The notes beneath the pieces are model-generated. The model saw only the letters and a list, made by a program, of their open reading frames with translations, did not search any database and had not been told where the DNA came from. A DNA stretch of 64,000 nt from Desulfatiglandales bacterium (GTDB lineage: Bacteria > Desulfobacterota > DSM-4660 > Desulfatiglandales > Desulfatiglandaceae), in contig OY762721.1 in the NCBI GenBank assembly GCA_963666345.1, positions 640,001-704,000 on the forward strand, written 5' to 3'. The position numbers and the translations under genes were made by a program. Below, piece by piece: positions 2,201 to 16,775 of this stretch (positions are counted from its first letter, which is position 1; every line of letters starts with the position of its first letter).

Positions 2201-3838
2201 TTACTCTTCGTTAAAACTCACTAGAGACTGGTCATAATCAGGCACTTTTTCATATCCCAGGAGATTCAAAAGGGTGGAGGCCACATTCGTTAGCCCGGGT
2301 CTTTTCAGCTTTCGCATGACATACTCGCCCCTGTAGGATGGGTCATAAATAGCAAAAGGGACCGGGTTGAGGGAATGAGCCGTCTTGGTCTGTTTGTGCC
2401 GTCCATCCTTTAAGGTGTACATTTCCTCTGAGTTGCCGTGATCCGCCGTTATTACCGCTATACCGCCTATCTCCTCTACCACTTCAAGAAGTTCACCGAC
2501 ACACAGATCCACCGTTTCAATAGCAGTGACAGCAGCCTTCAATACTCCCGTATGCCCCACCATGTCTCCATTAGGAAAATTCAAACGACCGAACCTGTAA
2601 TTCCCGGCCCTTAGCATCTCGATAGTCCTGTCCTTTATCTCGAAGGCCTTCATCCTGGGAGCCTTGTCAAATTCTATTCTGTCCGAGGGTATTTCCACAT
2701 ATCTTTCCAGAGAAGCATCGAGATATCCGGAACGGTTTCCGTTCCAGAAATATGTGACATGTCCGAATTTCTGGGTCTCTGATATTGCAAACGATTTTAC
2801 CCCTTCAGCACAAAGATATTCACCTATGGTCCGGTCTATGGAAGGAGGCGCCACGAGATAATTGGGAGGGATATGGGTGTCGCCGTCATATTCCATGATA
2901 CCCGCATAGATAATATCAGGAAGGGCCCCCCGCTCAAACGAATCAAAATCATCTTCAGTGAATGCACGTGAAATCTCTATGGCCCTGTCTCCCCTGAAAT
3001 TAAAACAGATAACCACATCCCCGTCTTTTATGGCACCGACAGGTTTACCATATTCGTCAACAACAACAAAGGAATCCATATATTGATCGGTCATGGAATG
3101 ATTCTCATCGTAAAAGGTCCGAATCGCCTCGTGCGCCGATCTGAACCGTCTTCCTTCCCCGTTTACGTGGGCGTCCCAACCCCTCTTCACTATCGACCAA
3201 TCCGCATTGTAGCGATCCATGGTTACCTTCATCCTGCCTCCTCCGGAGGCGATGCAGTAATCGAACCCCTTTTCTTCCGAGATACGAGAAAGCCTTTGTT
3301 CGGTTGGAATTACATAGCTCAACGCGGATTTTTCCCCCACGTCCCTTCCGTCAAGCAATGCATGAACTCGCAGGTTTTCAATCCCTGATTCGACACACCT
3401 TTCAATTATCCTGTAAAGATGATCAATGTGTGAATGCACGTTTCCATCAGAGAGCAACCCCAACAAATGGATGGCCCCCCCGGCTCTACCCCTTTTCACG
3501 ATACGGGCCCAGAGGTCGGTTTTAAATATATCTCCATTTTCAATCGCCCTGTTTACCAGCCGGGCGCCCTGATCAAAAACCCTTCCGGAACCAAGCGCGT
3601 TATGTCCTACTTCGCTGTTTCCCATATCCTTGTCTGAAGGAAGACCTACAGCGATGCCGTGCGCCTGAAGCTCACAATAAAGATCAGAGGAAAAGAGCCT
3701 GTCAAGATTAGGTGTCTTTGCCAAAAAGACGGCATTTGACCCGTCCGGTCTTCCAATCCCTACACCATCCATTATAATGAGAAGCAACGGACCCTTCCTT
3801 CCTGAAAAACCTTTCATTTTCTCAAGCCCCAAAGCCAT
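2201..3838 (-). CDS. gpmI: 2,3-bisphosphoglycerate-independent phosphoglycerate mutase
   Basis: IMDGVG, MGNSEVGH, GLLSDGNVHSH, DGRD, NFRGDRA, NGDMVGHTG and TADHGN motifs. Confidence 0.97.
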   Translation of the reverse strand: MALGLEKMKGFSGRKGPLLLIIMDGVGIGRPDGSNAVFLAKTPNLDRLFSSDLYCELQAHGIAVGLPSDKDMGNSEVGHNALGSGRVFDQGARLVNRAIENGDIFKTDLWARIVKRGRAGGAIHLLGLLSDGNVHSHIDHLYRIIERCVESGIENLRVHALLDGRDVGEKSALSYVIPTEQRLSRISEEKGFDYCIASGGGRMKVTMDRYNADWSIVKRGWDAHVNGEGRRFRSAHEAIRTFYDENHSMTDQYMDSFVVVDEYGKPVGAIKDGDVVICFNFRGDRAIEISRAFTEDDFDSFERGALPDIIYAGIMEYDGDTHIPPNYLVAPPSIDRTIGEYLCAEGVKSFAISETQKFGHVTYFWNGNRSGYLDASLERYVEIPSDRIEFDKAPRMKAFEIKDRTIEMLRAGNYRFGRLNFPNGDMVGHTGVLKAAVTAIETVDLCVGELLEVVEEIGGIAVITADHGNSEEMYTLKDGRHKQTKTAHSLNPVPFAIYDPSYRGEYVMRKLKRPGLTNVASTLLNLLGYEKVPDYDQSLVSFNEE

Positions 3839-5951: not shown

Positions 5952-6737
5952 ATGAAAGATTTTACACTGAGCGCATATGAGAGGTACCTGAAGGAGATAA
6001 AACGTTCCTTTTCTCTTGTCTTGAGATTCGATGAATTTCTGCAAAAACAGGTTCCTCCTCAAAGTTTTTGTATAATTCGACATGATGTCGACCGAAGGCC
6101 CGGAAACGCCCTTTTGATGGCTGAGATTGAAAAAAGATTGGCAGTCAGATCAACCTACTATTTCAGGGTCAAACATCACGCCTTTAAACCTGATATAATA
6201 CGCCGGATCTCTGAGATGGGTCACGAAGTGGGATACCATTATGAATGCCTTACAGATTCAAGGGGAGATGTCAGGGCCGCTTTGAAAGATTTCGAGATAA
6301 AGCTCCTCACATTAAGGGAGATAGCCCCGGTCAATACGATATCAATGCATGGCAGTCCCCTGAGCCGATTTGACAACAGAGATCTCTGGCGAGACGGAAA
6401 AAACCATGACCTGCTCCTGCAAAAACACTCTATCCTGGGGGAGATATACCTGGATATAGACTACTCTGAAATCGCTTATATAAGCGACACGGGACGCAAC
6501 TGGTCCCGTGAAAGATCAAACATCAGAGACCGGGTTGAATCCGGCCTGAATCCGGACTTTGCCGATGGTGAAGGACTTCTGGATTATCTCAAAGCCCGTC
6601 CCCACCCCAGGATAATCATGCTGTTTCATCCCGAACGATGGAACGAAAGGGCGCTTGATCGCGGTATATCCTATTTTTTTGACCTTGCGGTAAACTCCTG
6701 CAAGCAGCTACGAAATCTTGCACTCCACACGAAGTAA
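5952..6737 (+). CDS. Polysaccharide deacetylase-like (NodB-like) protein
   Basis: IIRHDVD, STYYFR, GHEVGYHYE, SMHG, YISDTG and LFHPERW motifs typical of deacetylase-fold proteins in glycan loci. Start at ATG 5952. Confidence 0.65.
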   Translation: MKDFTLSAYERYLKEIKRSFSLVLRFDEFLQKQVPPQSFCIIRHDVDRRPGNALLMAEIEKRLAVRSTYYFRVKHHAFKPDIIRRISEMGHEVGYHYECLTDSRGDVRAALKDFEIKLLTLREIAPVNTISMHGSPLSRFDNRDLWRDGKNHDLLLQKHSILGEIYLDIDYSEIAYISDTGRNWSRERSNIRDRVESGLNPDFADGEGLLDYLKARPHPRIIMLFHPERWNERALDRGISYFFDLAVNSCKQLRNLALHTK

Positions 6738-6752
6738 AAACAAAGAAGACAG

Positions 6753-7871
6753 ATGGATAAACATTCAATTGAATACAGGGACTTCCGGCCGGGGGATGAG
6801 AATGCTATAGACGACTTATATCACCGGATTTTCCGTAAGACCCGTGATCTTGAACAGTGGAAATGGGAATTTCTAAACACCCCTGAAGGAAAATCCATAA
6901 TACGAATAATCGAGGATGGCGGAAAGGTTATAGGCCATATTGCATTGATTCCCATGCGATTTTCATTCTTCGGCACTGATATTATCGTCGGAAAATCGGA
7001 AGATTCGAGCCTTCTAGCTGAATATAGGGGTAAAAGGCTTTTCGGCAAACTTGAGAAGAGCTGTTTTGACAGCGCCTCTGAAAAAGGTTTTTCAATCGCC
7101 TATAGTATTTCAAGAACCGCCAGAGAGGTCCATCTCAAGGCAGGGTATCATCCGCTTTCCCCGCTCAAGGGATATTTCATTTCTATTGAACACGACTTTG
7201 TGGCTGAAGAACTGTCTAAATTTTTCCATTTGAGAAAACCAGGCAAGGCGCTCCTTAAGGCGACGCTCAAAATCCTTTCAAAAAAATTTGAAAAGGAATC
7301 AAAGTCAAGAGTTGAAGGGATAAAAGATATCTCAATCGAAAAGATAGAGAGGTTTGACGACAGGGCTGATGAGCTGTTTGACAGATTCGTCGGCAGGCAT
7401 GATGTGATAACGGTAAAGCGCTCTGAATCCTATCTGAACTGGCGCTTTGTTGACAATCCCAATCATGATTATGATATATATATGGCACTGCATGAAAATG
7501 CCCCTGCAGGGTATATTATAACCACAGCGGTAAAGCGCAAAGAGGATTTCAATTGTGATCTGCTGATAGGGTTGATATCCGATTTTCTTGTGCTTGAAGA
7601 GTACAAAGAAGCCCTGCCGCTCCTTTTTGATAAGGCGGTGGAGAGCTGGCATCGCAGAAGGTGCGACTGTGTTATCAATTGGATTCAAAAGGATGGAATC
7701 CTTTCAGATTCGATGTTAAAACAGTTGAGGCGCTTCGGTTTTTTGCCGATGATGGGGAAGTTCAGCATCCCCATATCGGTTCGTCCCCTGAACGAGGATA
7801 TGTCTCTTCAAGGCATTATTGATCAAAAAAATTGGTTTATAACACTTGCCATGTCCGGGAGATGGGCGTAG
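6753..7871 (+). CDS. GNAT-family N-acyltransferase (probably two GNAT domains)
   Basis: EYRGKRLF acyl-CoA motif, WKWEF.N.P and RSESYLNWRF.DNP motifs. Confidence 0.75.
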   Translation: MDKHSIEYRDFRPGDENAIDDLYHRIFRKTRDLEQWKWEFLNTPEGKSIIRIIEDGGKVIGHIALIPMRFSFFGTDIIVGKSEDSSLLAEYRGKRLFGKLEKSCFDSASEKGFSIAYSISRTAREVHLKAGYHPLSPLKGYFISIEHDFVAEELSKFFHLRKPGKALLKATLKILSKKFEKESKSRVEGIKDISIEKIERFDDRADELFDRFVGRHDVITVKRSESYLNWRFVDNPNHDYDIYMALHENAPAGYIITTAVKRKEDFNCDLLIGLISDFLVLEEYKEALPLLFDKAVESWHRRRCDCVINWIQKDGILSDSMLKQLRRFGFLPMMGKFSIPISVRPLNEDMSLQGIIDQKNWFITLAMSGRWA

Positions 7872-7946
7872 CAGATTGCCGGGACTAACTTATACCTGAT
7901 ACTGGGTTTTCATCATTTACAGTATTTGATTTTTCACAGACAGCAG

Positions 7947-8525
7947 ATGCCGGAGATGGAAACAAGAAAAGAGAAAACCGAAAGGAACTTCGACAGAGTG
8001 AAGGGCCTGTTTTCATGGCTCAAGATATTCTATTCAAAGGCAAAAGGCATAAAGCTCATTTATCAACTTTATTATTTCGCACCGCAGAAAATCCTGCGAA
8101 TAAACGGCCGTGTGCCCTGGCCTGTTCACTTCACATCAAGAGTCCTCTACCATGAAAAAATAAGTCTGGGTAATCGCTCGGCACCTGGAATGAGTTCCAA
8201 TTGCTATATCCAGGCGAGAAATGGTATTGAAATCGGACACAATCTCAGGATGGGCCCTGGGGTGGGCCTAATAAGCTCAAACCACCATATAGACGACTAT
8301 GACATATGGCCGGAAACGGGGCCGATAAGGATCGGCGACAACGTCTGGATCGGCATGAATTCGATAGTCCTGCCGGGAATAAAAATCGGAGACAATGTTG
8401 TAATCGCCTCGGGTTCAGTGGTTAACAGCGATATCGCCTCGAATTCTATCGCAGGTGGCAACCCCTGTAAGATCATAAAAGAAAAAAGACCCTATCAAGG
8501 AAAAGACTACAGCATAATAGAATGA
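7947..8525 (+). CDS. Hexapeptide-repeat (LbH) sugar O-acyltransferase
   Basis: IRIGDNVWIGMNSIVLPGIKIGDNVVIASGSVV and GGNPCKII. Start uncertain (7947 or 7956). Confidence 0.85.
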   Translation: MPEMETRKEKTERNFDRVKGLFSWLKIFYSKAKGIKLIYQLYYFAPQKILRINGRVPWPVHFTSRVLYHEKISLGNRSAPGMSSNCYIQARNGIEIGHNLRMGPGVGLISSNHHIDDYDIWPETGPIRIGDNVWIGMNSIVLPGIKIGDNVVIASGSVVNSDIASNSIAGGNPCKIIKEKRPYQGKDYSIIE

Positions 8526-9412
8526 TTTCATGGCACAAATACTTTGTATATCTATCGCTTTTTTTCCTGGCTGTCTTTCTTTTTAAGACAGATTATCTCA
8601 AGATTCCTGCCGTAATATCACCTCAATACCTGATCCTCTCATTCCTTTTTCTTTTTTCCGGTTTTATCGGCAATGCCTTTTCCTGGCACCGACTGCTCAA
8701 GGCGTCAAAAAACCCGGTATCCATAAAAGTCTGCATCTCATCGGTGGGATTGTCCATTTTCGGCAAATATATACCTGGAAAATTCTGGCTCATAATGGGA
8801 AGGGCTGCGCACGTAGCTGAGAACTCCGCTTATTCGCTAGGCAGGGTATCGGCCCTTTCTCTAAACGCCCAGTTCATATCCCTGTGGTTTGGTCTGGTTT
8901 TGGGAACATTCGGCCTTTTCATACTGGGAGGGCTGTATCTTTGGGGATGGATCATCCTTGTCCTGTGGCTTGTACTGACAGCCGTTGTCTTTAGCAGCTT
9001 TTTTAACAATGCAGGTGAAAAATTTCTGAGTTTTATCCTCAAAAAAGAGATTGCGATCCCCAAACTGACCTTGATGGAAACCATTACCGTGGCTCCATGG
9101 TTTGCGATTTCATGGCTCTTATGGGCGGCAGGATTCTATTTTTTCGTCTGCGCCCTTTCCCTTTCAGGCATGCCGATCAGCGTCGGTCTTGGTTTCCCCT
9201 TGGCAGGCACATTGGGAATAATGGCGGTTTTTGCGCCCGGCGGACTGGGGGCGAGAGAAGGAGTTGCGGCAGCTTACCTCTGCCTGGCAGGGTTGGGTCT
9301 ACAAGAAGCGACAACCATCGCAGTAGCCTCAAGGGCATGGTTTCTCTCTGGGGAGGCCTTCATCTTCCTCCTGGGGTGGTTTTCAAAAAAGGCGCACAGA
9401 AAAATCCAATAA
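8522..9412 (+). CDS. Lysylphosphatidylglycerol-synthase-TM/UPF0104 flippase-like membrane protein
   Basis: About 8 TM segments with GKYIPGK and APGGLGAREG motifs; ATGA overlap with the upstream gene. Confidence 0.8.
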   Translation: MISWHKYFVYLSLFFLAVFLFKTDYLKIPAVISPQYLILSFLFLFSGFIGNAFSWHRLLKASKNPVSIKVCISSVGLSIFGKYIPGKFWLIMGRAAHVAENSAYSLGRVSALSLNAQFISLWFGLVLGTFGLFILGGLYLWGWIILVLWLVLTAVVFSSFFNNAGEKFLSFILKKEIAIPKLTLMETITVAPWFAISWLLWAAGFYFFVCALSLSGMPISVGLGFPLAGTLGIMAVFAPGGLGAREGVAAAYLCLAGLGLQEATTIAVASRAWFLSGEAFIFLLGWFSKKAHRKIQ

Positions 9413-9420
9413 TTGATCTG

Positions 9421-10368
9421 CTATTTTAGATTTTTGTTGTATTCCATATCAAACCACATGCTGAAAAAAAGCGTCTGAAGACCGCTTATCAATGTAAAGA
9501 CAAGGGCCATCGCATTTATGTCAGGGATATCGCCGATGGTTGCCCATATGAAAAAAAACCTTATTGCAAGAGGCATACTCAGTCCAAGAAGCAAAAAAGA
9601 GAGGACATAGAAAAATATAAGCGGGTGGAAATCCTTTATGACATATTTATAAAAAAGCCTTTTCCAGAAACCCTTGAACAAAATCCAGCTTATCGTGGGA
9701 ATTACCTTAAACAGCTTGATGCCTGACTTTTCTCCTACATTATAAACCGGCCTTATATGAACATCCCTGACACGAAAATCCTTTTCATTTAGTTTTATCA
9801 GGATATCATTCGGCATTCCATAGCGTTTGAATATCTTATCCAGATCAAGCCTTTTAAGGGCCAAAAGAGATACGGCGGTGTAGCCGCTCTGGGAATCGGC
9901 AATATGCCAGTAACCTGAAGCAATTTTTGTTAACAGGGACAGGAATGAATTACCCAGATACCTGTAATGAGGAATCATCTTCCAGGCCTCACCGTAAAAA
10001 AGGCGATTGCCCTTTGTATACTCAACCTCTCCCCTTGCAACAGGCTCAATTATAGGTACCAGATCCCTGGGATCCATCTGGGCGTCACCGGCCATTACCA
10101 CCGTGACATCCACTTCCATATCACGCGCCATTTTATAGCCCGTGACTATCGCCCCCCCGACACCTTGGTTTATCTCATGATCCAGATGCACCAGACGGCT
10201 CCGTTCGTTTGCCAATCTCTCCAGGATCTTAGAGGTCCTGTCACTGCTGGCATCATTAACGGCAATGATTTTGTCCACATAATCGGGGATCGAATCAATG
10301 GTTTTTTCAATGAGCTTTTCCTCATTGTGCGCCGGGATCACAACTGCAACTGTCTTTTCCATATACAT
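9421..10368 (-). CDS. GT2 glycosyltransferase, DPM1-like (polyprenol-phosphate glycosyltransferase) with two C-terminal TM helices
   Basis: VVIPAHNEE, VNDASSDRT, NQGVGGA, AGDAQMDP, KGNR and DSQSGY motifs; hydrophobic C-terminus. Confidence 0.9.
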   Translation of the reverse strand: MYMEKTVAVVIPAHNEEKLIEKTIDSIPDYVDKIIAVNDASSDRTSKILERLANERSRLVHLDHEINQGVGGAIVTGYKMARDMEVDVTVVMAGDAQMDPRDLVPIIEPVARGEVEYTKGNRLFYGEAWKMIPHYRYLGNSFLSLLTKIASGYWHIADSQSGYTAVSLLALKRLDLDKIFKRYGMPNDILIKLNEKDFRVRDVHIRPVYNVGEKSGIKLFKVIPTISWILFKGFWKRLFYKYVIKDFHPLIFFYVLSFLLLGLSMPLAIRFFFIWATIGDIPDINAMALVFTLISGLQTLFFSMWFDMEYNKNLK

Positions 10369-10421
10369 GACACACCGCCATTAAACTGAACGTTTACAAG
10401 ATATTTTCTCTCTTATTTGAT

Positions 10422-12107
10422 TCAAATTCGAGGCGAAACTTCAAAAACCCCGATCTCATTGTCAAGGAACATAAGATTCAGTTCCCCTTTAAATAAATCT
10501 TTAAGCACCCTCTTGCCGCCCTCTTCAAAAAGATCATTGCTCCATTTATTCAGAAAACCCAGATGTGCGATAATATGGGTTATATCCCTATGCCTCAACC
10601 TCTCCAGCAGGCGTTGCGAATCCCCCCCGGCGGATTTTACCTGTCTATAGAGCCAGTCCACCTCCGCCGGGGTATCGGGTATGTAGTCCCTTTTACAATA
10701 GTAACCTCTCTTACCCAAAAAGACAAACAGGATAAGCGAATGTTCAGGCAGGTTACGGTTTGCGTACTGAATTGAAGGATACTCAGGTCTGTACCGGGTG
10801 ATGTACTCATCCCTGTCCGTTTTACCAGAAATATAGGAAAAGGGTCCTACATACTTGAACTGGTCCAAGACATAGAACAAATTCAACAAAAGGGAAAAAA
10901 CAACCGCAAAAATTACCGGAAGCGATCGTGACGTTTTCCAGCGAACTGATTTTACCGCTTTCAGGGAGGTGACCGACCTTTCTATGCCAAGCGTAGACAA
11001 TATAATCAGAGGTCCTATCAGAGGAGATAGGTATCTTATCCTCATAACAGTGCCGAAAAAGGAGAAAAGCAGAATAAGGATGGAAAAGGCAAGAAGAATT
11101 TTCTTTTCCCTCTCCAGTCCGGGAGGGCCTCTTTTAACCCTTATAAAACCAAGCATTGGAAATATAAGCAGAAAGGGATTGAGTCTTCCGTCGAATAGGC
11201 GGGGGTCCCCATCTTTTCCCTGGAAAAAAATCCTGACCGGCACAAGGGCAATCTGCCACCATTTTTCCTTGTAAATAATACTTCTATAGGCAAAGTGACC
11301 CTTTGGATGTGCCAGGGATGCATCCCTACGATCGATGTCTGAGCCGGGAAAGGTGCTGCCTGCATTGAATCTTTCTTCATAAAGGGGGTAAAAGGGATTA
11401 TTGGTCCATATATAATTTCTTATCATCCAGGGTGAGAAAATAAGAAGCGCTATCGAGAGAAACAGTGCTCCACACCACAAAGACTTTGCGAACCCGAATT
11501 TTCCGCTCCCGCTGAATCTCGCATGGATAAACAAGACAAAAAGTGTCAGAAATACCAAAACGGCAATGCCGTTATATTTGGTTCCCAGCCCAAGGCCGCA
11601 GCAGAGAGCGGACAATATAAGAAATTTCGCCTTAAATTCCTTTTGGATCCATTTCAGTATCAACAGAACCGATGCCGTCGAAAAAAATGTGAGCCCCAGA
11701 TCCACATATGCGGTTATGGAAAGCTTTATTACGACCGGCAGAGAAAGGAATAACAAGGCACCCAAAAGGGCATAAATCTTATCGGATCTTGTTTTAAGGT
11801 AATGATAGATCAGCAGGGCCGTCAAAAGTGCAAAGGAAAAATGTATGAATTTGGGGGCTATATCGTTTCCAAGATAAAGAGCGATCAGATACAGCAGATC
11901 CAGATTCATCGGATAATAGGAATATGGCATGGAAGGTATTTCAAAGATATTTCCGTGCTTCAAGTAAAGCTCGGGGACTGCCAGATGATGGACTAACGCA
12001 TCTTTGCTGACAGGCGGAACAAGACTGAGGAAAATGACAGAGGAAATAAGCAGAAGCAGAAGACCCGTCAAAAATATTTTCAAAAAAGTTTCATGTCTTG
12101 CCGACAT
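10422..12107 (-). CDS. GT-C fold lipid-carrier-dependent glycosyltransferase (ArnT/PMT-like), 561 aa
   Basis: Multi-TM protein with loop-1 Asp (PPVSKDALVHHL), YVDLG, GTKY, PWMIRNYIWTNNPFYP and RYL motifs. Confidence 0.75.
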   Translation of the reverse strand: MSARHETFLKIFLTGLLLLLISSVIFLSLVPPVSKDALVHHLAVPELYLKHGNIFEIPSMPYSYYPMNLDLLYLIALYLGNDIAPKFIHFSFALLTALLIYHYLKTRSDKIYALLGALLFLSLPVVIKLSITAYVDLGLTFFSTASVLLILKWIQKEFKAKFLILSALCCGLGLGTKYNGIAVLVFLTLFVLFIHARFSGSGKFGFAKSLWCGALFLSIALLIFSPWMIRNYIWTNNPFYPLYEERFNAGSTFPGSDIDRRDASLAHPKGHFAYRSIIYKEKWWQIALVPVRIFFQGKDGDPRLFDGRLNPFLLIFPMLGFIRVKRGPPGLEREKKILLAFSILILLFSFFGTVMRIRYLSPLIGPLIILSTLGIERSVTSLKAVKSVRWKTSRSLPVIFAVVFSLLLNLFYVLDQFKYVGPFSYISGKTDRDEYITRYRPEYPSIQYANRNLPEHSLILFVFLGKRGYYCKRDYIPDTPAEVDWLYRQVKSAGGDSQRLLERLRHRDITHIIAHLGFLNKWSNDLFEEGGKRVLKDLFKGELNLMFLDNEIGVFEVSPRI

Positions 12108-12148
12108 CTGGTAAAGCCTCTAAGAGTTAATAATCCGGCACGTTTCGA

Positions 12149-13957
12149 TTACCGATCTTGATCGGATATCCTTTTATTTATTCCTTTAATCATAAGATCA
12201 ATGTGAAGCCTCTTCCACTCAGAAGACGGGATCATATCCATATGCCCCATGGCATTTGAAAAATCCCCCAGTCTTATGTATGCCATGGCCAGGTTCTTTC
12301 TTAACAAAGAGGATTCGCCTGACAATTCCAGGCCCCTGTTCAACACCTCTATTGCGGCTTGATATTGGCCCTTTGCTCCGTGGCTTGAGCCCAGATTAGC
12401 CCAGAAATCAGATCGATCGGGGCAGAGATAAACCGCCTTTTCAAAATATCTCAAGGCCCTGTCATAATTCTTCGTCTTAAAAAAAACAGTCCCGAAATTG
12501 TTTAAGACCAACCCCTTTTGATCTGAGGTAAGATATTTCAAAGAGGCCTTTTCCAGATAAGGCAGGGCACTTTCATACCGACCCGTCTCGATTAGTAAAA
12601 CGGCATAGTTTAGGAGGACCTCACCTCCGGGATATTTTTCAAGGGCGACCTTGAGGTATTTTTCCGCCTCCCGGTATTTTTTCTTCTCAAGCAGATTTAT
12701 ACCCAGACCTCCTGAATAAAAATGGTTGTCAAACACAATAACTTCCTGAGAAAAGAAAGAATTCTCATCCTTCCATAGATTTTTATTCAATATATAGGAA
12801 TAGGAGCCAAAATAAAAAGTTATGATCAAAAGCATGGAGTTGACCAGAAAGGATCTTGACATGAGAGGCGCTTTCAATTTCCCGGCAATCAGCATTATAA
12901 AAGGTAGCGGGAAATAGAGCCATCTCATGGATATAAGAGTAACCGCCGATGTCTTTATAAGATTTAAGACGGGAAAAATTGCAATAATAAAACAGATGAG
13001 AGGAAGACAAATAAATCTGTCCCTTCTTTTCGTCCAAACAGCATATATGATCATGATCATGCCTGCAATCCCTGCCAGCCCCCTCCAGTCAGAATAATCA
13101 CAAGGATATCGGACGATAAAACTGTGGAGATCGTGGGGCAAAAATAGAAGTTTCAGGTTATAAATAATAAGATAGGGAGCAAAATAGATTCTTTCGATTA
13201 TATTTCCTGTCTCCGCAGCGGTTGTCCACGTGCCTGTTATCCCCTTTTTCAGCAAAAGATAGGAAGCAAGGATTATTATAAAAGGGACATAACCGATGAA
13301 TTCCAATTTATAATCCTTTTTTGTAACGTCAAGGAGTCGGTTAAAGACGAACAATAAAGGCGGGATCATAAAGGCAAATTCCTTTGAGGCCAGGGCCGTT
13401 GCAAAGAAAATCAGGGATAAGGTATACTTCGTCCAAGAGGCTTCTTCTCGGCCGCGGAGATATAAATATATACAGGCAATCGAAAAAAAGGTAACAAGGA
13501 TATTGTTCCTCGAAACTATAAAAGATATCGCTTCAGTGTTTACGGGATGAAGCGCAAACAGCGCAGAACCCCAAAAAGCGGGAAGGGTCTCACTGAACAG
13601 CTGCCTTAGGATATAAAAAAGTAGAATAGACGTAGCCATATGAAAAAGGATGTTAGTCAGCCTGAAACCGCAGGCATTTAACCCCCAGATCATGAAGTCC
13701 AAACGATAGGTCAGATTGACCAGCGGCCTATAATAACCCGTATGATAGGGGGCTTCATTTTTTCCGTCTATTATCGAGTCTTCCTGACTGAGATAAGATG
13801 ACAGGGAATGCCCCTGCCTCAGGTATCTGTTATTTTCGATCAAGGGTCTGTCATCAAGGATGAAACCGCCTGACAGGATAGGATGATAAGCCAGTAAAAT
13901 CAAAAGGGGGCAAACCATATAGGGTAACCACAAATGTTTTTCCGGTTTCATAAACAT
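12149..13957 (-). CDS. TMTC-like GT-C glycosyltransferase with C-terminal TPRs, 602 aa
   Basis: GFILDD, YYRPL, LFALHPVNTEAISFIVSR, SKE, RWLYFP and WKDENS motifs, followed by TPR repeats. Confidence 0.8.
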   Translation of the reverse strand: MFMKPEKHLWLPYMVCPLLILLAYHPILSGGFILDDRPLIENNRYLRQGHSLSSYLSQEDSIIDGKNEAPYHTGYYRPLVNLTYRLDFMIWGLNACGFRLTNILFHMATSILLFYILRQLFSETLPAFWGSALFALHPVNTEAISFIVSRNNILVTFFSIACIYLYLRGREEASWTKYTLSLIFFATALASKEFAFMIPPLLFVFNRLLDVTKKDYKLEFIGYVPFIIILASYLLLKKGITGTWTTAAETGNIIERIYFAPYLIIYNLKLLFLPHDLHSFIVRYPCDYSDWRGLAGIAGMIMIIYAVWTKRRDRFICLPLICFIIAIFPVLNLIKTSAVTLISMRWLYFPLPFIMLIAGKLKAPLMSRSFLVNSMLLIITFYFGSYSYILNKNLWKDENSFFSQEVIVFDNHFYSGGLGINLLEKKKYREAEKYLKVALEKYPGGEVLLNYAVLLIETGRYESALPYLEKASLKYLTSDQKGLVLNNFGTVFFKTKNYDRALRYFEKAVYLCPDRSDFWANLGSSHGAKGQYQAAIEVLNRGLELSGESSLLRKNLAMAYIRLGDFSNAMGHMDMIPSSEWKRLHIDLMIKGINKRISDQDR

Positions 13958-13987
13958 CTTTGTTGCCGCCTCTAAAAGGATATAGAT

Positions 13988-16120
13988 ATGAGGATATTTG
14001 AGTTGAATAAGTCATTATATCTGTCGGATTGCAGAAGAACAGTATTCATTTGCATCTCAGCATTCATCCTTATTCTATTGACCTATTCCAACACCTTCCA
14101 GGCCTCCTGGCATTTTGATGATAAACCAAATATACTGAACAGAGAGGCCATGCAGTTAACCGAACTTTCCTTCTCAAATATTGAAAAAACATTTTACCAC
14201 AAAGGCCAGATCTACAGACCATTTTCATGCCTGAGTCTGGCGCTTAACTACTATATCGGCCGAACGGATGTAACAGGATACCACCTGGTCAACACATCTA
14301 TTCATTGCCTGGCATCTATATTTTTATATCTATTAATATATCAGATCCTCAATCTACCAACTCTGGACGGCAGATACGAAAAGACGGCTCATTCCATAGC
14401 CCTTGTTGCCGCGCTTCTTTGGGCGATAAATCCGGTTCAGACTCAGGCCGTTACCTATATAGTACAAAGAATGGCCTCTATGGCCGCACTCTTTTACATT
14501 ATGGCCATGTACCTCTACATAAAAGGAAGAATTGCTGAAAACGCCTTTAAGAAATTTTTTTTCTTTCTTCTATGCCTATCTGCGGCCATTCTTGCTATCG
14601 GGTCAAAGGAAAATGCCGCAATGATTCCGATCAGCCTTTTCTTATTAGAACTGTTCCTGATTCAAGGGATATCGAATGTGAATCTGAGGTCAAGTTTACT
14701 GATATTAATAGCACTCATCCTTCTTCCTTTACTGGCAGTGCTTCTTCTAAGAGGCCCTTCCACCTTTGACCCCTCATACCTCTCAGCCTTTTATGAAGCA
14801 AAACCCTTCAGCATGTCAGAGAGACTTCTGACCGAACCGAGGATAATACTCTTTTATCTCTCTCTTTTGTTTTATCCTATGCCCGAAAGACTTTCCATAA
14901 GCCATGACATTTCTTTATCTCAAGGCCTTTTTGACCCGGCCACCACAATAATCTCAATTGCCGCCATAGGGCTGATCATACTGGCATGTCTGATCAGTGC
15001 AAGGAGATTGCCTTTAACGTCCTACTGCGTAATATTTTTTTTCCTGAACCATTTGATGGAATCTACGGTCTTCCCGCTTGAGCTCGTTTTCGAACACAGG
15101 AATTATCTGCCATCGATGCTTTTATTTGTGCCGCTGGCAGTCCTCATAATAGAAGGCCTTCTTTTCTTTGAAAAAAAGATTTACATGCAAGTCATCATCG
15201 CTTCATTTCCCGCCTTACTTTTGATTGGCTATGGACACAGCACCTATATTCGTAATTTCGTATGGCAAAGTGAGGGTACTCTCTGGAAAGACGCAGCAAT
15301 AAAAGCGCCCAAGCTCGCCAGGCCTCATAACAATCTCGGGAAATTCTATTTTGAAAACGGCCTGTTTGAAAAGGCATTCATGGAACATCAAAAGGCATTA
15401 TCAGGGAAATGCCTTCACCGGAAAAATGAGCACCATCTGACATATTACAACCTCGGCCTGGAATACCAGAGAAGAGGTGACCTGGACCTAGCTCTCAAAT
15501 ACTACAGGATTTCAGAAAATATAAGGCCCGATTATGCAAAACTGCAAAACAATATAGGAACCATACTTCTTGAAAAGGGTCAACCGGAGGAGGCTGCAAA
15601 GGCCTTTAGAAAGGCGGTCAATTCACACCCGACAAATTCCATATACAGCAAAAACCTCGGTTTCGTACTTCTGGAATCGGGTCTGATCAAAAAAGCGTCC
15701 GGCAGTTTTTTACAGGCCCTTGAGGTCAATCCCCATGACCAGGCAGCCCTTAAGGGCCTTGGTTACATAAACAGGTTAATCGGCAATCTAGGCACATCGC
15801 TTATTCAGTTTAAAAAAGCCCTTAGATACGATCCGATCGACCCGACCATACTCCTGTATATGGCAGAGATCTTTCTTGCTAAAAATGACAGTGCAACGGC
15901 TCGGAGCCTTATAAATGAATTCACAAAAACCGGAAACAAGATAGACCTGAATGAATATATTGACGGACTGATCAGCCCCAAAGGAAAGGAAGATGATTAT
16001 GATGCGGTTTACCGCAAAAAAGTCGTACTGAAATTGCTCTCAAATGAATTCAACGAAAAGGCTTCTGATCTTTCCCGCAGGGCAAAACATGTCCTGTCGT
16101 CTCTTGAATATATGAAATAG
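13988..16120 (+). CDS. TMTC-like GT-C glycosyltransferase with C-terminal TPRs, 710 aa
   Basis: WHFDD, IYRPFS, LWAINPVQTQAVTYIVQR, SKENA, EHRNYLPS and WQSEGTLW motifs, followed by several TPRs (HNNLG, YYNLG, QNNIG, KNLG). Confidence 0.8.
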   Translation: MRIFELNKSLYLSDCRRTVFICISAFILILLTYSNTFQASWHFDDKPNILNREAMQLTELSFSNIEKTFYHKGQIYRPFSCLSLALNYYIGRTDVTGYHLVNTSIHCLASIFLYLLIYQILNLPTLDGRYEKTAHSIALVAALLWAINPVQTQAVTYIVQRMASMAALFYIMAMYLYIKGRIAENAFKKFFFFLLCLSAAILAIGSKENAAMIPISLFLLELFLIQGISNVNLRSSLLILIALILLPLLAVLLLRGPSTFDPSYLSAFYEAKPFSMSERLLTEPRIILFYLSLLFYPMPERLSISHDISLSQGLFDPATTIISIAAIGLIILACLISARRLPLTSYCVIFFFLNHLMESTVFPLELVFEHRNYLPSMLLFVPLAVLIIEGLLFFEKKIYMQVIIASFPALLLIGYGHSTYIRNFVWQSEGTLWKDAAIKAPKLARPHNNLGKFYFENGLFEKAFMEHQKALSGKCLHRKNEHHLTYYNLGLEYQRRGDLDLALKYYRISENIRPDYAKLQNNIGTILLEKGQPEEAAKAFRKAVNSHPTNSIYSKNLGFVLLESGLIKKASGSFLQALEVNPHDQAALKGLGYINRLIGNLGTSLIQFKKALRYDPIDPTILLYMAEIFLAKNDSATARSLINEFTKTGNKIDLNEYIDGLISPKGKEDDYDAVYRKKVVLKLLSNEFNEKASDLSRRAKHVLSSLEYMK

Positions 16121-16134
16121 GCCATAATACGCAT

Positions 16135-16174
16135 AAAAAAACACGAATGCCTGTGTTTAACCAGGCATTCGTGT
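16135..16174 (-). terminator. Rho-independent terminator of pilA (between convergent genes)
   Basis: 13-bp perfect stem ACACGAATGCCTG/CAGGCATTCGTGT, 8-nt loop, U-tract on the minus strand. Confidence 0.85.
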
Positions 16175-16198
16175 GCAATAAGCTTGACAAACCCTATA

Positions 16199-16588
16199 TT
16201 ACAACGCTGGGCTATTAGGCGTAATATCGCCGCCAGGTCCTGTAACCGTATAGGTGTGCGTACCGCCTGCGTGAACGGCTGTTGCGGCGAATGAAGTTCC
16301 ATCCGCGCCTGTAATTGTGACTGTTACGTTTTTGGATGAGCCTATAAAACCGGCATCTGAAAGATTTGCGATGGTAGACGTATAGGTGTTGTTATCGGTA
16401 TGGTAGACCTCCTGCGCGGTTGCCAGATTCTTGAGATCCGACATGGATGCAGAGTTACCCGCCCTCTTCTTGTAATTTGTGAATTGCGGGATCGCAATAG
16501 CAGCAAGAATCCCGATAATTGCGATAACGATCATCAACTCAATGAGAGTAAAACCCTTTTCATTATTTCTTGTCATTTTTGAAAGCAT
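16199..16588 (-). CDS. pilA: Type IVa major pilin (117-aa mature form)
   Basis: Prepilin site [26 protein letters not shown] with E5; strong AAGGAGG RBS; own promoter and terminator. Confidence 0.93.
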
Positions 16589-16719: not shown

Positions 16720-16736
16720 TACAATTAGCATGCCAA
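16720..16736 (-). promoter_or_regulatory. Sigma54 -24/-12 promoter of pilA
   Basis: Minus strand reads TTGGCATGCTAATTGTA (GG-N10-GT, a -12 variant of GC); the adjacent gene encodes a sigma54 activator. Confidence 0.7.
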
Positions 16737-16775
16737 AAGATACAACAAAACAAATTATTACAATATACTATGTTA

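Follow-up and report, generated by a model that had tools for sequence, protein, structure and literature searches.

What are glycosyltransferase genes doing beside the gene of a type IV pilin? The question is raised by a stretch of 64,000 nucleotides from a Desulfatiglandales bacterium (contig OY762721.1; G000:C1:640001-704000), here termed the window, whose genome is a single contig and 96.7% complete. Next to pilA lie genes for two membrane proteins of 602 and 710 amino acids (aa) that combine a GT-C glycosyltransferase domain with tetratricopeptide repeats (TPRs), together with genes for a third GT-C enzyme of 561 aa, a GT2 glycosyltransferase, a UPF0104 protein and candidate sugar-modifying enzymes. 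An original prediction, made from the letters of the DNA, had described these nine genes as a complete, eukaryote-like (TMTC-type) pathway of pilin O-glycosylation with no characterised bacterial precedent. All nine were recovered within 5952..16588. The statement on precedent overlooks TfpW, a GT-C/TPR enzyme of Pseudomonas aeruginosa group IV (646 aa, DDX motif, C-terminal TPRs, gene right after pilA) that O-glycosylates pilin Ser/Thr residues with D-arabinofuranose (bioRxiv 10.1101/2020.04.19.049825). We propose that the island is probably a TfpW-like pilin glycosylation system with exchangeable GT-C enzymes.

Linkage to pilin genes and exchange of GT-C genes

The gene-neighbourhood survey revealed that the 710-aa, 602-aa, 561-aa and GT2 genes are linked to pilin genes in relatives. 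The 710-aa profile matched 69 of the 123 genomes of the class, and 60 loci were taken around the best non-self matches among 100 listed; the 46 loci scoring at least 500 are called close orthologues and the other 14 are weaker. In 41 of the 46 the gene lies within 3 kb of a pilin gene, four others ending at a contig edge and one lying at 3.7 kb. Of these 41 genes, 29 are convergent with the pilin gene, eight follow directly on a same-strand pilA and four are arranged otherwise. As controls, none of 25 TMTC-like genes of other clades (20 loci; for seven genes the sequence on one side is shorter than 3 kb, and three genes lie 3.1-3.2 kb from minor-pilin-like genes) and none of 10 genes in nine DUF1736-matching loci were found within this distance. 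Among 20 loci sampled from the 36 matches in other orders, the nine strong ones comprise five pilin-adjacent genes, three truncated by the contig and one that is not adjacent. In a FastTree phylogeny of 140 domains the 710-aa clade (n=62, support 0.996) contains 50 pilin-adjacent members, nine truncated and three not adjacent, and the 602-aa clade is separate (support 1.0), 10 of its 13 members lying within 3 kb of a pilin gene. The linkage outlasts inversion and the departure of pilA from pilR (loci L043, L044 and L048), and recurs with a different, MSHA-like pilin at G000:C1:2058422-2061546 and at L078, L079, L087 and L185. At L008, L177, L180, L181 and L184 the 710-aa and 561-aa genes, usually with the GT2 gene, stand on one strand, mostly after pilA; as judged from these arrangements, the 710-aa gene seems to be inverted in much of this order. 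A gene for a VKOR-DsbA fusion follows the 710-aa orthologue at L008, L009 and L070; the window island is devoid of such a gene.

The exchange of enzymes was examined from the side of the pilin, in 20 pilin loci from a pilA search that have no adjoining match to the 710-aa clade. Another GT-C gene occurs within a few genes of the pilin at 10 of them: a 602-aa-clade gene directly after pilA (L159), another TMTC-like clade (L163-L165), TMEM260-like genes (L160, L176), a PMT_2-TPR gene (L171), or the 561-aa type with a GT2 gene on the other side of the pilin (L167, L169, L170). The remaining loci comprise six that end at or soon after the pilin, one that is ambiguous (L175) and three with unrelated neighbours. 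GT-C genes are thus exchangeable at the position next to pilA, which is what a variable surface modification would lead one to expect. TMEM260-like genes, which often bear TPRs, were seen in pilin islands at L043, L074, L077, L083, L160, L163-L165, L176 and L209, beside TMTC-like genes or in their place; they were called by Pfam at L043, L074, L077 and L083 and elsewhere by similarity to one of those.

The genome contains a second pilin island (G000:C1:2041802-2066579; L001, L002) with pilB, pilC, a sigma-54 regulator and two MSHA-like pilins. A convergent gene there encodes a 700-aa paralogue that is 47% identical to the 710-aa protein in the membrane domain, accompanied by UPF0104, two GT4, four GT2, two more TMTC-like and two other GT-C-like genes, and then minor pilins. 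The genome has six TMTC-like genes, and five thus reside in the two pilin islands. The sixth (734 aa; L003, G000:C1:2467236-2481974) follows two secreted ELW-repeat proteins that share an identical C-terminal tail, possibly non-pilin acceptors, and stands before a GT2 gene and a sugar-pathway operon, as read by eye. At the second locus we also observed a frame of 1205 codons with a prepilin start (G000:C1:2035074-2038691).

These data bear on whether the GT-C/TPR enzymes might instead be general O-glycosyltransferases of envelope proteins, pilin being one target among several or the marker of a variable insertion site. Such a role would agree with the six paralogues, one of which adjoins two secreted repeat proteins and a sugar operon in a pilin-free setting, with close homologues inside pilin-free glycan operons (L189, L190, L193), with the Ig-like domains on which TMTC and TMEM260 act according to PMC11292533, and with a phosphoglycerate mutase gene directly after pilA at L174, which points to an insertion site. 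We nevertheless regard it as unlikely, in view of a single supported clade that is pilin-adjacent in 50 of its 62 members, across two pilus types and several orders, and of a gene that accompanies pilA when pilA departs from pilR. A pilin-directed system as proposed above remains our preferred reading.

The GT-C/TPR proteins and their relation to TMTC

Both TPR proteins carry the motif series that had been claimed for them: F43-D44-D45, Y76RP, N148PVQTQA, I158VQR, S206KE, R371NYLP and W426QSE in the 710-aa protein, and F32ILDD, Y76RP, H137PVNTEA, I147VSR, S191KE, R345WLYFP and W395KDE in the 602-aa protein, the late motif of the latter being R..Y.P and not R.Y.P. Residues D44, D45, R77, P78, R161, K207, E208, R371 and Y373 are conserved at 95% or more in 48 aligned 710-aa orthologues, so that the motifs are not due to chance, and the same residues, with small shifts, are kept in 12 sequences of the 602-aa group. 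The two proteins are only 28-31% identical, over part of the domain. Pfam detects TPRs in both and PMT_2 above cut-off in the 602-aa protein, whose GT-C assignment comes from this match and from homology; no GT-C family of Pfam matched the 710-aa protein. For the latter, an AlphaFold model of the membrane domain was built from a 12-row alignment (predicted local distance difference test, pLDDT, 78.6; predicted template modelling score 0.83). In a wide structure search every one of its 20 best matches was a GT-C-type chain, Z falling from 18.3 to 9.4 before a drop to 6.5 in the row that follows, with AglB (Z 18.3, root-mean-square deviation 4.7, 307 residues aligned), Pmt (17.6) and ArnT (16.8) as the best. 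A crude hydropathy scan counted 8 and 6 transmembrane helices in the TPR proteins, compared with 11 in TMTC, and the 710-aa model aligns to GT-C enzymes of 11-13 transmembrane helices across most of its length. The original prediction had staked itself on a GT-C fold and on conserved linkage to pilA, and both were found.

PMC7801869 defines seven TMTC motifs, M1 to M7, and already mentions prokaryotic homologues. Both window TPR proteins have M1 (DD, first outer loop) and the KE part of M4 (D44-D45 and K207-E208 in the 710-aa protein, D35-D36 and K192-E193 in the 602-aa protein), the M4 tail (T/Q)xxT not being kept in the window proteins. YRP alone is kept of M2 (SHKSYRP), SHKS being lost, and M7 (ERxxY) reads EHRNY and MRWLY in the 710-aa and 602-aa proteins, respectively. 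The RxD of M3 is replaced by R161-M-A and R150-N-N, no DW (M5) is conserved where the alignment would place it (the 602-aa protein has a DW at 290 that its orthologues do not keep), and PxxP (M6) was not found in the window proteins. TMTC_DUF1736 remained below its cut-off of 27 throughout the genome, the best score being that of the 602-aa protein (11.8 bits, E 0.85), and none of 36 aligned members reached it. Among 301 genomes of the phylum, eight proteins in seven genomes pass this cut-off; the profile of the 710-aa clade picks up every one of them (E 1e-14 to 2e-55), and in alignment the part covered by DUF1736 falls on the YxxxxxxP loop of the window proteins. In the Atlas, a eukaryotic DUF1736 cluster scores 0.93 for a 56%-identical homologue (P0016), behind bacterial PMT_2 clusters, and 5 of 120 homologues among the matches listed bear the automatic name "protein O-mannosyl-transferase". 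Profile searches of PDB sequences for TMTC gave no match, and no TMTC chain occurs among the listed structure matches of the 710-aa model.

Of the TMTC-type claim, a real but distant relation therefore stands, on the eight matching DUF1736 proteins and the Atlas score, and membership does not: DUF1736 stays below cut-off, three of the motifs (RxD, DW, PxxP) are lacking, and there are bacterial clades nearer to TMTC. Judged by sequence, the window TPR proteins are cousins of TMTC, neither members nor the closest bacterial relatives; the TMTC label overstates membership, the pilin link being well supported by genomics.

Layout of the island and its accessory genes

The island genes fall on the two strands in three blocks: the deacetylase-like, GNAT, LbH and UPF0104 genes, then the GT2, 561-aa and 602-aa genes on the opposite strand, then the 710-aa gene (Table 1). 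This arrangement indicates three units and rules out a single operon. The 710-aa gene ends 78 bp from the convergent pilA. The 602-aa and 710-aa genes diverge from starts that are a mere 30 bp apart (13957-13988), so that the promoters of both must overlap coding sequence, or else the starts are misplaced.

Table 1. Positions of the island genes and of neighbouring elements in the window.
Feature	Position	Strand	Remarks
Polysaccharide-deacetylase-like, 261 aa	5952..6737	+	PF01522 E 0.2; PdaA E 0.3 (weak)
GNAT-family protein, 372 aa	6753..7871	+	PF13527 E 2e-9
LbH (hexapeptide-repeat) sugar acyltransferase-like, 199 aa	7926..8525	+	PF00132 (Hexapep)
UPF0104/LPG_synthase_TM, 296 aa, predicted flippase	8522..9412	+	PF03706 over cut-off
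GT2, two C-terminal hydrophobic helices, 315 aa	9421..10368	-	PF00535; predicted polyprenol-phosphate sugar synthase
GT-C without TPR, 561 aa (PMT/ArnT-like)	10422..12107	-	PMT PF02366 E 1.6e-9 and PMT_2, over cut-off
TMTC-related GT-C/TPR protein, 602 aa	12149..13957	-	DD at 35-36; PMT_2 and TPR
TMTC-related GT-C/TPR protein, 710 aa	13988..16120	+	DD at 44-45; GT-C fold; best candidate pilin transferase
Intrinsic-terminator-like hairpin	16141..16174	-	3' of pilA, between convergent genes; 13-pair stem then T run
Type IVa major pilin pilA, 129 aa (117 mature)	16199..16588	-	N_methyl; predicted acceptor
Sigma-54-like -24/-12 element upstream of pilA	16730..16747	-	read by eye
PilR-like sigma-54 response regulator, 458 aa	16908..18284	-	just upstream of pilA

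PilA matches the PilA_Myxo model at E 1.5e-19, below cut-off. It contains no Cys, and its globular part is rich in Ser/Thr (24 among the last 92 residues). Three N-x-S/T sequons occur in the mature pilin (positions 54, 63 and 75; window 16202-16552), and relatives have from 0 to 5. PglL/TfpO and PglB, said to be missing from the window, are missing genome-wide as searched: neither Wzy_C nor STT3 was matched in the genome (controls matched in 9 and 4 of 14 genomes, respectively), nor was Wzy_C among the neighbour genes scanned in related loci. N-linkage is not favoured, since sequon counts vary and no STT3 was found. The element upstream of pilA was read with what we take to be the sigma-54 -24/-12 consensus, and a PilR-like regulator lies inside the fetched flank at 29 of the 46 related loci. 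A scan for sigma-70 promoters came near chance (32 sites, 24.3 expected).

The low G+C content of the island (41.6-45.3% versus 48.0%) is weak evidence, since a nearby ribosomal operon has a similar value. At L174 (G013:C6, same family) the phosphoglycerate mutase gene directly follows pilA; in the window this gene is at 2201-3838. The stretch between the two, including a gene for a 606-aa oxidoreductase, looks like an island with an empty-site version, as far as gene order can tell.

The family calls for GT2, UPF0104, Hexapep and GNAT hold above Pfam cut-offs, and that of the deacetylase is weak. The best PDB match of the GT2 protein is the dolichol-P-mannose synthase 5MLZ (E 2e-8), and its match to the AglJ model (E 1e-18) is yet far below cut-off. 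NCBIfam sugar O-acetyltransferase models all stayed below cut-off for the LbH protein. For the 561-aa protein, alignment-free prediction gave a model too poor to use (pLDDT 43.5). In the 46 loci, whose flanks of about 9 kb are in many cases fragmented, orthologues of the 561-aa gene were counted at 20, of the 602-aa gene at 11 and of one of two GT2 types at 21. When all loci are counted, the 561-aa orthologues number 27, of which 21 have a pilin gene within 6 kb and 22 occur with the window-type or the alternative GT2; six of 16 weaker 561-aa homologues from other families are equally close to pilin. UPF0104 genes were found within 15 kb, by coordinate comparison, in at least 12 of the 46 loci and again at the second locus, the family also being present in 107 of 123 genomes. 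The core hence consists of pilin, at least one GT-C and GT2, with a recurrent flippase-like gene and the deacetylase, GNAT and LbH genes as variable extras. A fixed, complete pathway with acyl modifiers was not borne out, and the acyl genes were rejected as core parts, the deacetylase occurring in 2 of the 46 loci, LbH in 1 and GNAT in 0; across the other 122 genomes of the class the deacetylase had matches in 10, in four of these within 25 kb of a 710-aa orthologue. At loci with the window-type GT2 (L041, L046, L054, L062), Gfo/Idh/MocA-LbH, DegT aminotransferase and asparagine-synthase-like genes are often seen. These genes suggest an amino- or acetamido-sugar over mannose.

A second alternative is that part or all of the island acts on lipid or polysaccharide, the GT2, flippase, deacetylase and ArnT-like 561-aa protein adding a sugar to lipid A, lipopolysaccharide (LPS) or a glycolipid. 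The 561-aa protein has no TPRs and matches an ArnT model weakly (E 7e-4, below cut-off), only 6 of its 16 weaker homologues outside the order lie within 6 kb of a pilin gene, and a Pseudomonas glycolipid is made by a trio of glycosyltransferase, deacetylase and UPF0104 (PMC12713373). The 561-aa type is, however, found directly beside pilin at L167, L169, L170, L210 and L213; with a GT2 gene it flanks pilin at L167, L169, L170 and L213 and follows pilA at L209 (order pilA, TMEM260-like, 561, GT2, deacetylase) and L210 (pilA, 561, GT2). A lipid target moreover leaves the two TPR-bearing enzymes unexplained, and we hold it to be improbable, more so than the envelope-protein alternative. In the single genus of L167, L169, L170 and L213, it is a second pilin gene that is sandwiched between the 561-aa orthologue and GT2.

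That the TPR membrane proteins are non-catalytic assembly or chaperone factors of the pilus retaining a GT-C scaffold, as the match of their TPRs to the PilW model (E 2e-23, under the cut-off) and the non-enzymatic accessory genes after pilA in Pseudomonas (PMC11841053) might suggest, is very improbable given the nearly invariant DD, RP, R, KE and R/Y loop residues and the GT2 and sugar-pathway genes that accompany these proteins.

A predicted pilin glycosylation route and its known counterparts

To return to the proposed TfpW-like system, what the analysis establishes is the genes, their motifs, the fold, the linkage to pilin and the exchange of GT-C types next to pilA; its activity, donor sugar, acceptor, linkage type and order of steps we infer, and the same applies to the mannose, stepwise transfer and acyl decoration of the original prediction. 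GT-C enzymes with an acidic motif in the first loop use lipid-linked sugars outside the cytoplasm. The GT2 enzyme would load a sugar onto polyprenol phosphate, a lipid-linked monosaccharide donor being suggested by its resemblance to polyprenol-phosphate sugar synthases (5MLZ; two C-terminal helices). The UPF0104 protein may flip the lipid-linked sugar. Once outside the cytoplasm, the sugar would be handed by the GT-C enzymes to Ser/Thr residues of pilin still held in the membrane. The 710-aa protein is the most likely protein-directed transferase, its TPRs being predicted to hold the acceptor, and the 602-aa and 561-aa enzymes might modify other sites or extend the glycan; because the 561-aa or 602-aa type alone adjoins pilin at some loci, there is more than one candidate initiator. 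The deacetylase, GNAT and LbH proteins would form a swappable set that likely tailors the sugar. By analogy with TfpW, the likely purpose would be to mask the pilus from phages, pilin glycosylation of this kind blocking pilus phages according to bioRxiv 10.1101/150227.

Several points weigh against this proposal. The system is known here through its genes, and the 710-aa gene is not co-transcribed with pilA. The linkage counts come from related genomes and overstate independence; they are descriptive and carry no significance test. Pilin adjacency drops to 5 of 14 among the weaker 710-aa homologues in the class and to 1 of 11 among the weaker matches in other orders, and at L161, L166 and L174 pilA has visible downstream DNA with no adjoining GT-C gene. 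GT9, GT4, YfhO and Wzx-like families occur among the neighbours in relatives and are also compatible with LPS or other surface glycans, and the wider family of the TPR enzymes, with 145,147 clusters at E 0.001 (75,083 at 1e-30), must serve other acceptors as well. Foldseek ranked the same families first for the 710-aa model, none at E 0.001 or better. The full YX6PFX7P motif of TfpW occurs in 0 of 47 and 0 of 11 sequences here. The domain PF04030, which we take as a proxy for DprE1, was not found in this 96.7%-complete genome (controls matched in 3 of 14 genomes); D-arabinofuranose was rejected as donor.

It is possible, if doubtful, that pilins across Desulfobacterota are glycosylated by a plug-and-play system of several enzymes, headed by a clade of bacterial TMTC relatives dedicated to pilin. 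In it, TMTC-, TMEM260- and PMT-like GT-C enzymes would build or place glycans on folded pilin by single lipid-linked monosaccharides, and would be swapped between genomes in an arms race with phages. On this view TfpW, TMTC and TMEM260 would represent a single, ancient radiation, within bacteria, of glycosyltransferases that act on folded domains under the guidance of TPRs. With TfpW as a precedent, the idea as such is less surprising. The island nevertheless points to an acceptor, type IV pilin, for one clade of a vast family on which hardly any experiments exist, and since no TMTC chain appeared in our structure searches, a bacterial enzyme of small size and its pilin might offer a tractable way to study how TPR-bearing GT-C enzymes choose folded acceptors. 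Variable sugar coats would be predicted on the pili of many anaerobic sediment bacteria, with a bearing on phage resistance and pilus surface properties.

We found no description of this system in Desulfobacterota in a literature search that left most subscription papers outside, and compared it with four known ones. TMTC1-4 (CAZy GT105), which use polyprenol-P-mannose as donor and beta-strands of Ig/cadherin domains as acceptor, resemble the window TPR proteins in joining a GT-C domain to TPRs and in the DD, YRP, KE and late Arg/Tyr; the window proteins differ in their lack of an above-cut-off DUF1736 and of RxD, DW, PxxP and SHKS, and the bacterial clades closer to TMTC are not pilin-adjacent (0/10). 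TfpO/PglL reach the outcome predicted here, an O-glycosylated pilin, from a gene adjoining pilA, by means of another enzyme family (Wzy_C), not found in this genome. In three-component lipid-linked systems of the GtrABC/ArnCEFT type, a GT2 synthase acts with a flippase and a GT-C transferase. The island likewise encodes a GT2 synthase, a predicted flippase and GT-C transferases together, whereas the known acceptors of those systems are O-antigen, lipid A, teichoic acid or S-layer glycan, and here the genes keep to the company of pilin and two transferases bear TPRs. A flippase role is predicted for UPF0104 proteins in PMC5898192 and PMC12713373, the former giving the archaeal AglD/UPF0104 context of three-component systems. 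TfpW differs in having one GT-C enzyme, compared with three here, a DprE1/DprE2 arabinose route in place of GT2, and a same-strand gene downstream of pilA, an arrangement seen in 8 of 46 relatives, whereas the 710-aa gene of the window converges on pilA. The likeness to TfpW is one of architecture and position: a GT-C enzyme with a DD in the first outer loop and C-terminal TPRs, encoded next to pilA, of similar size (646 aa versus 602 and 710), with a predicted lipid-linked donor and with a Tyr-X6-Pro in the matching late loop of 46 of 47 710-aa orthologues.

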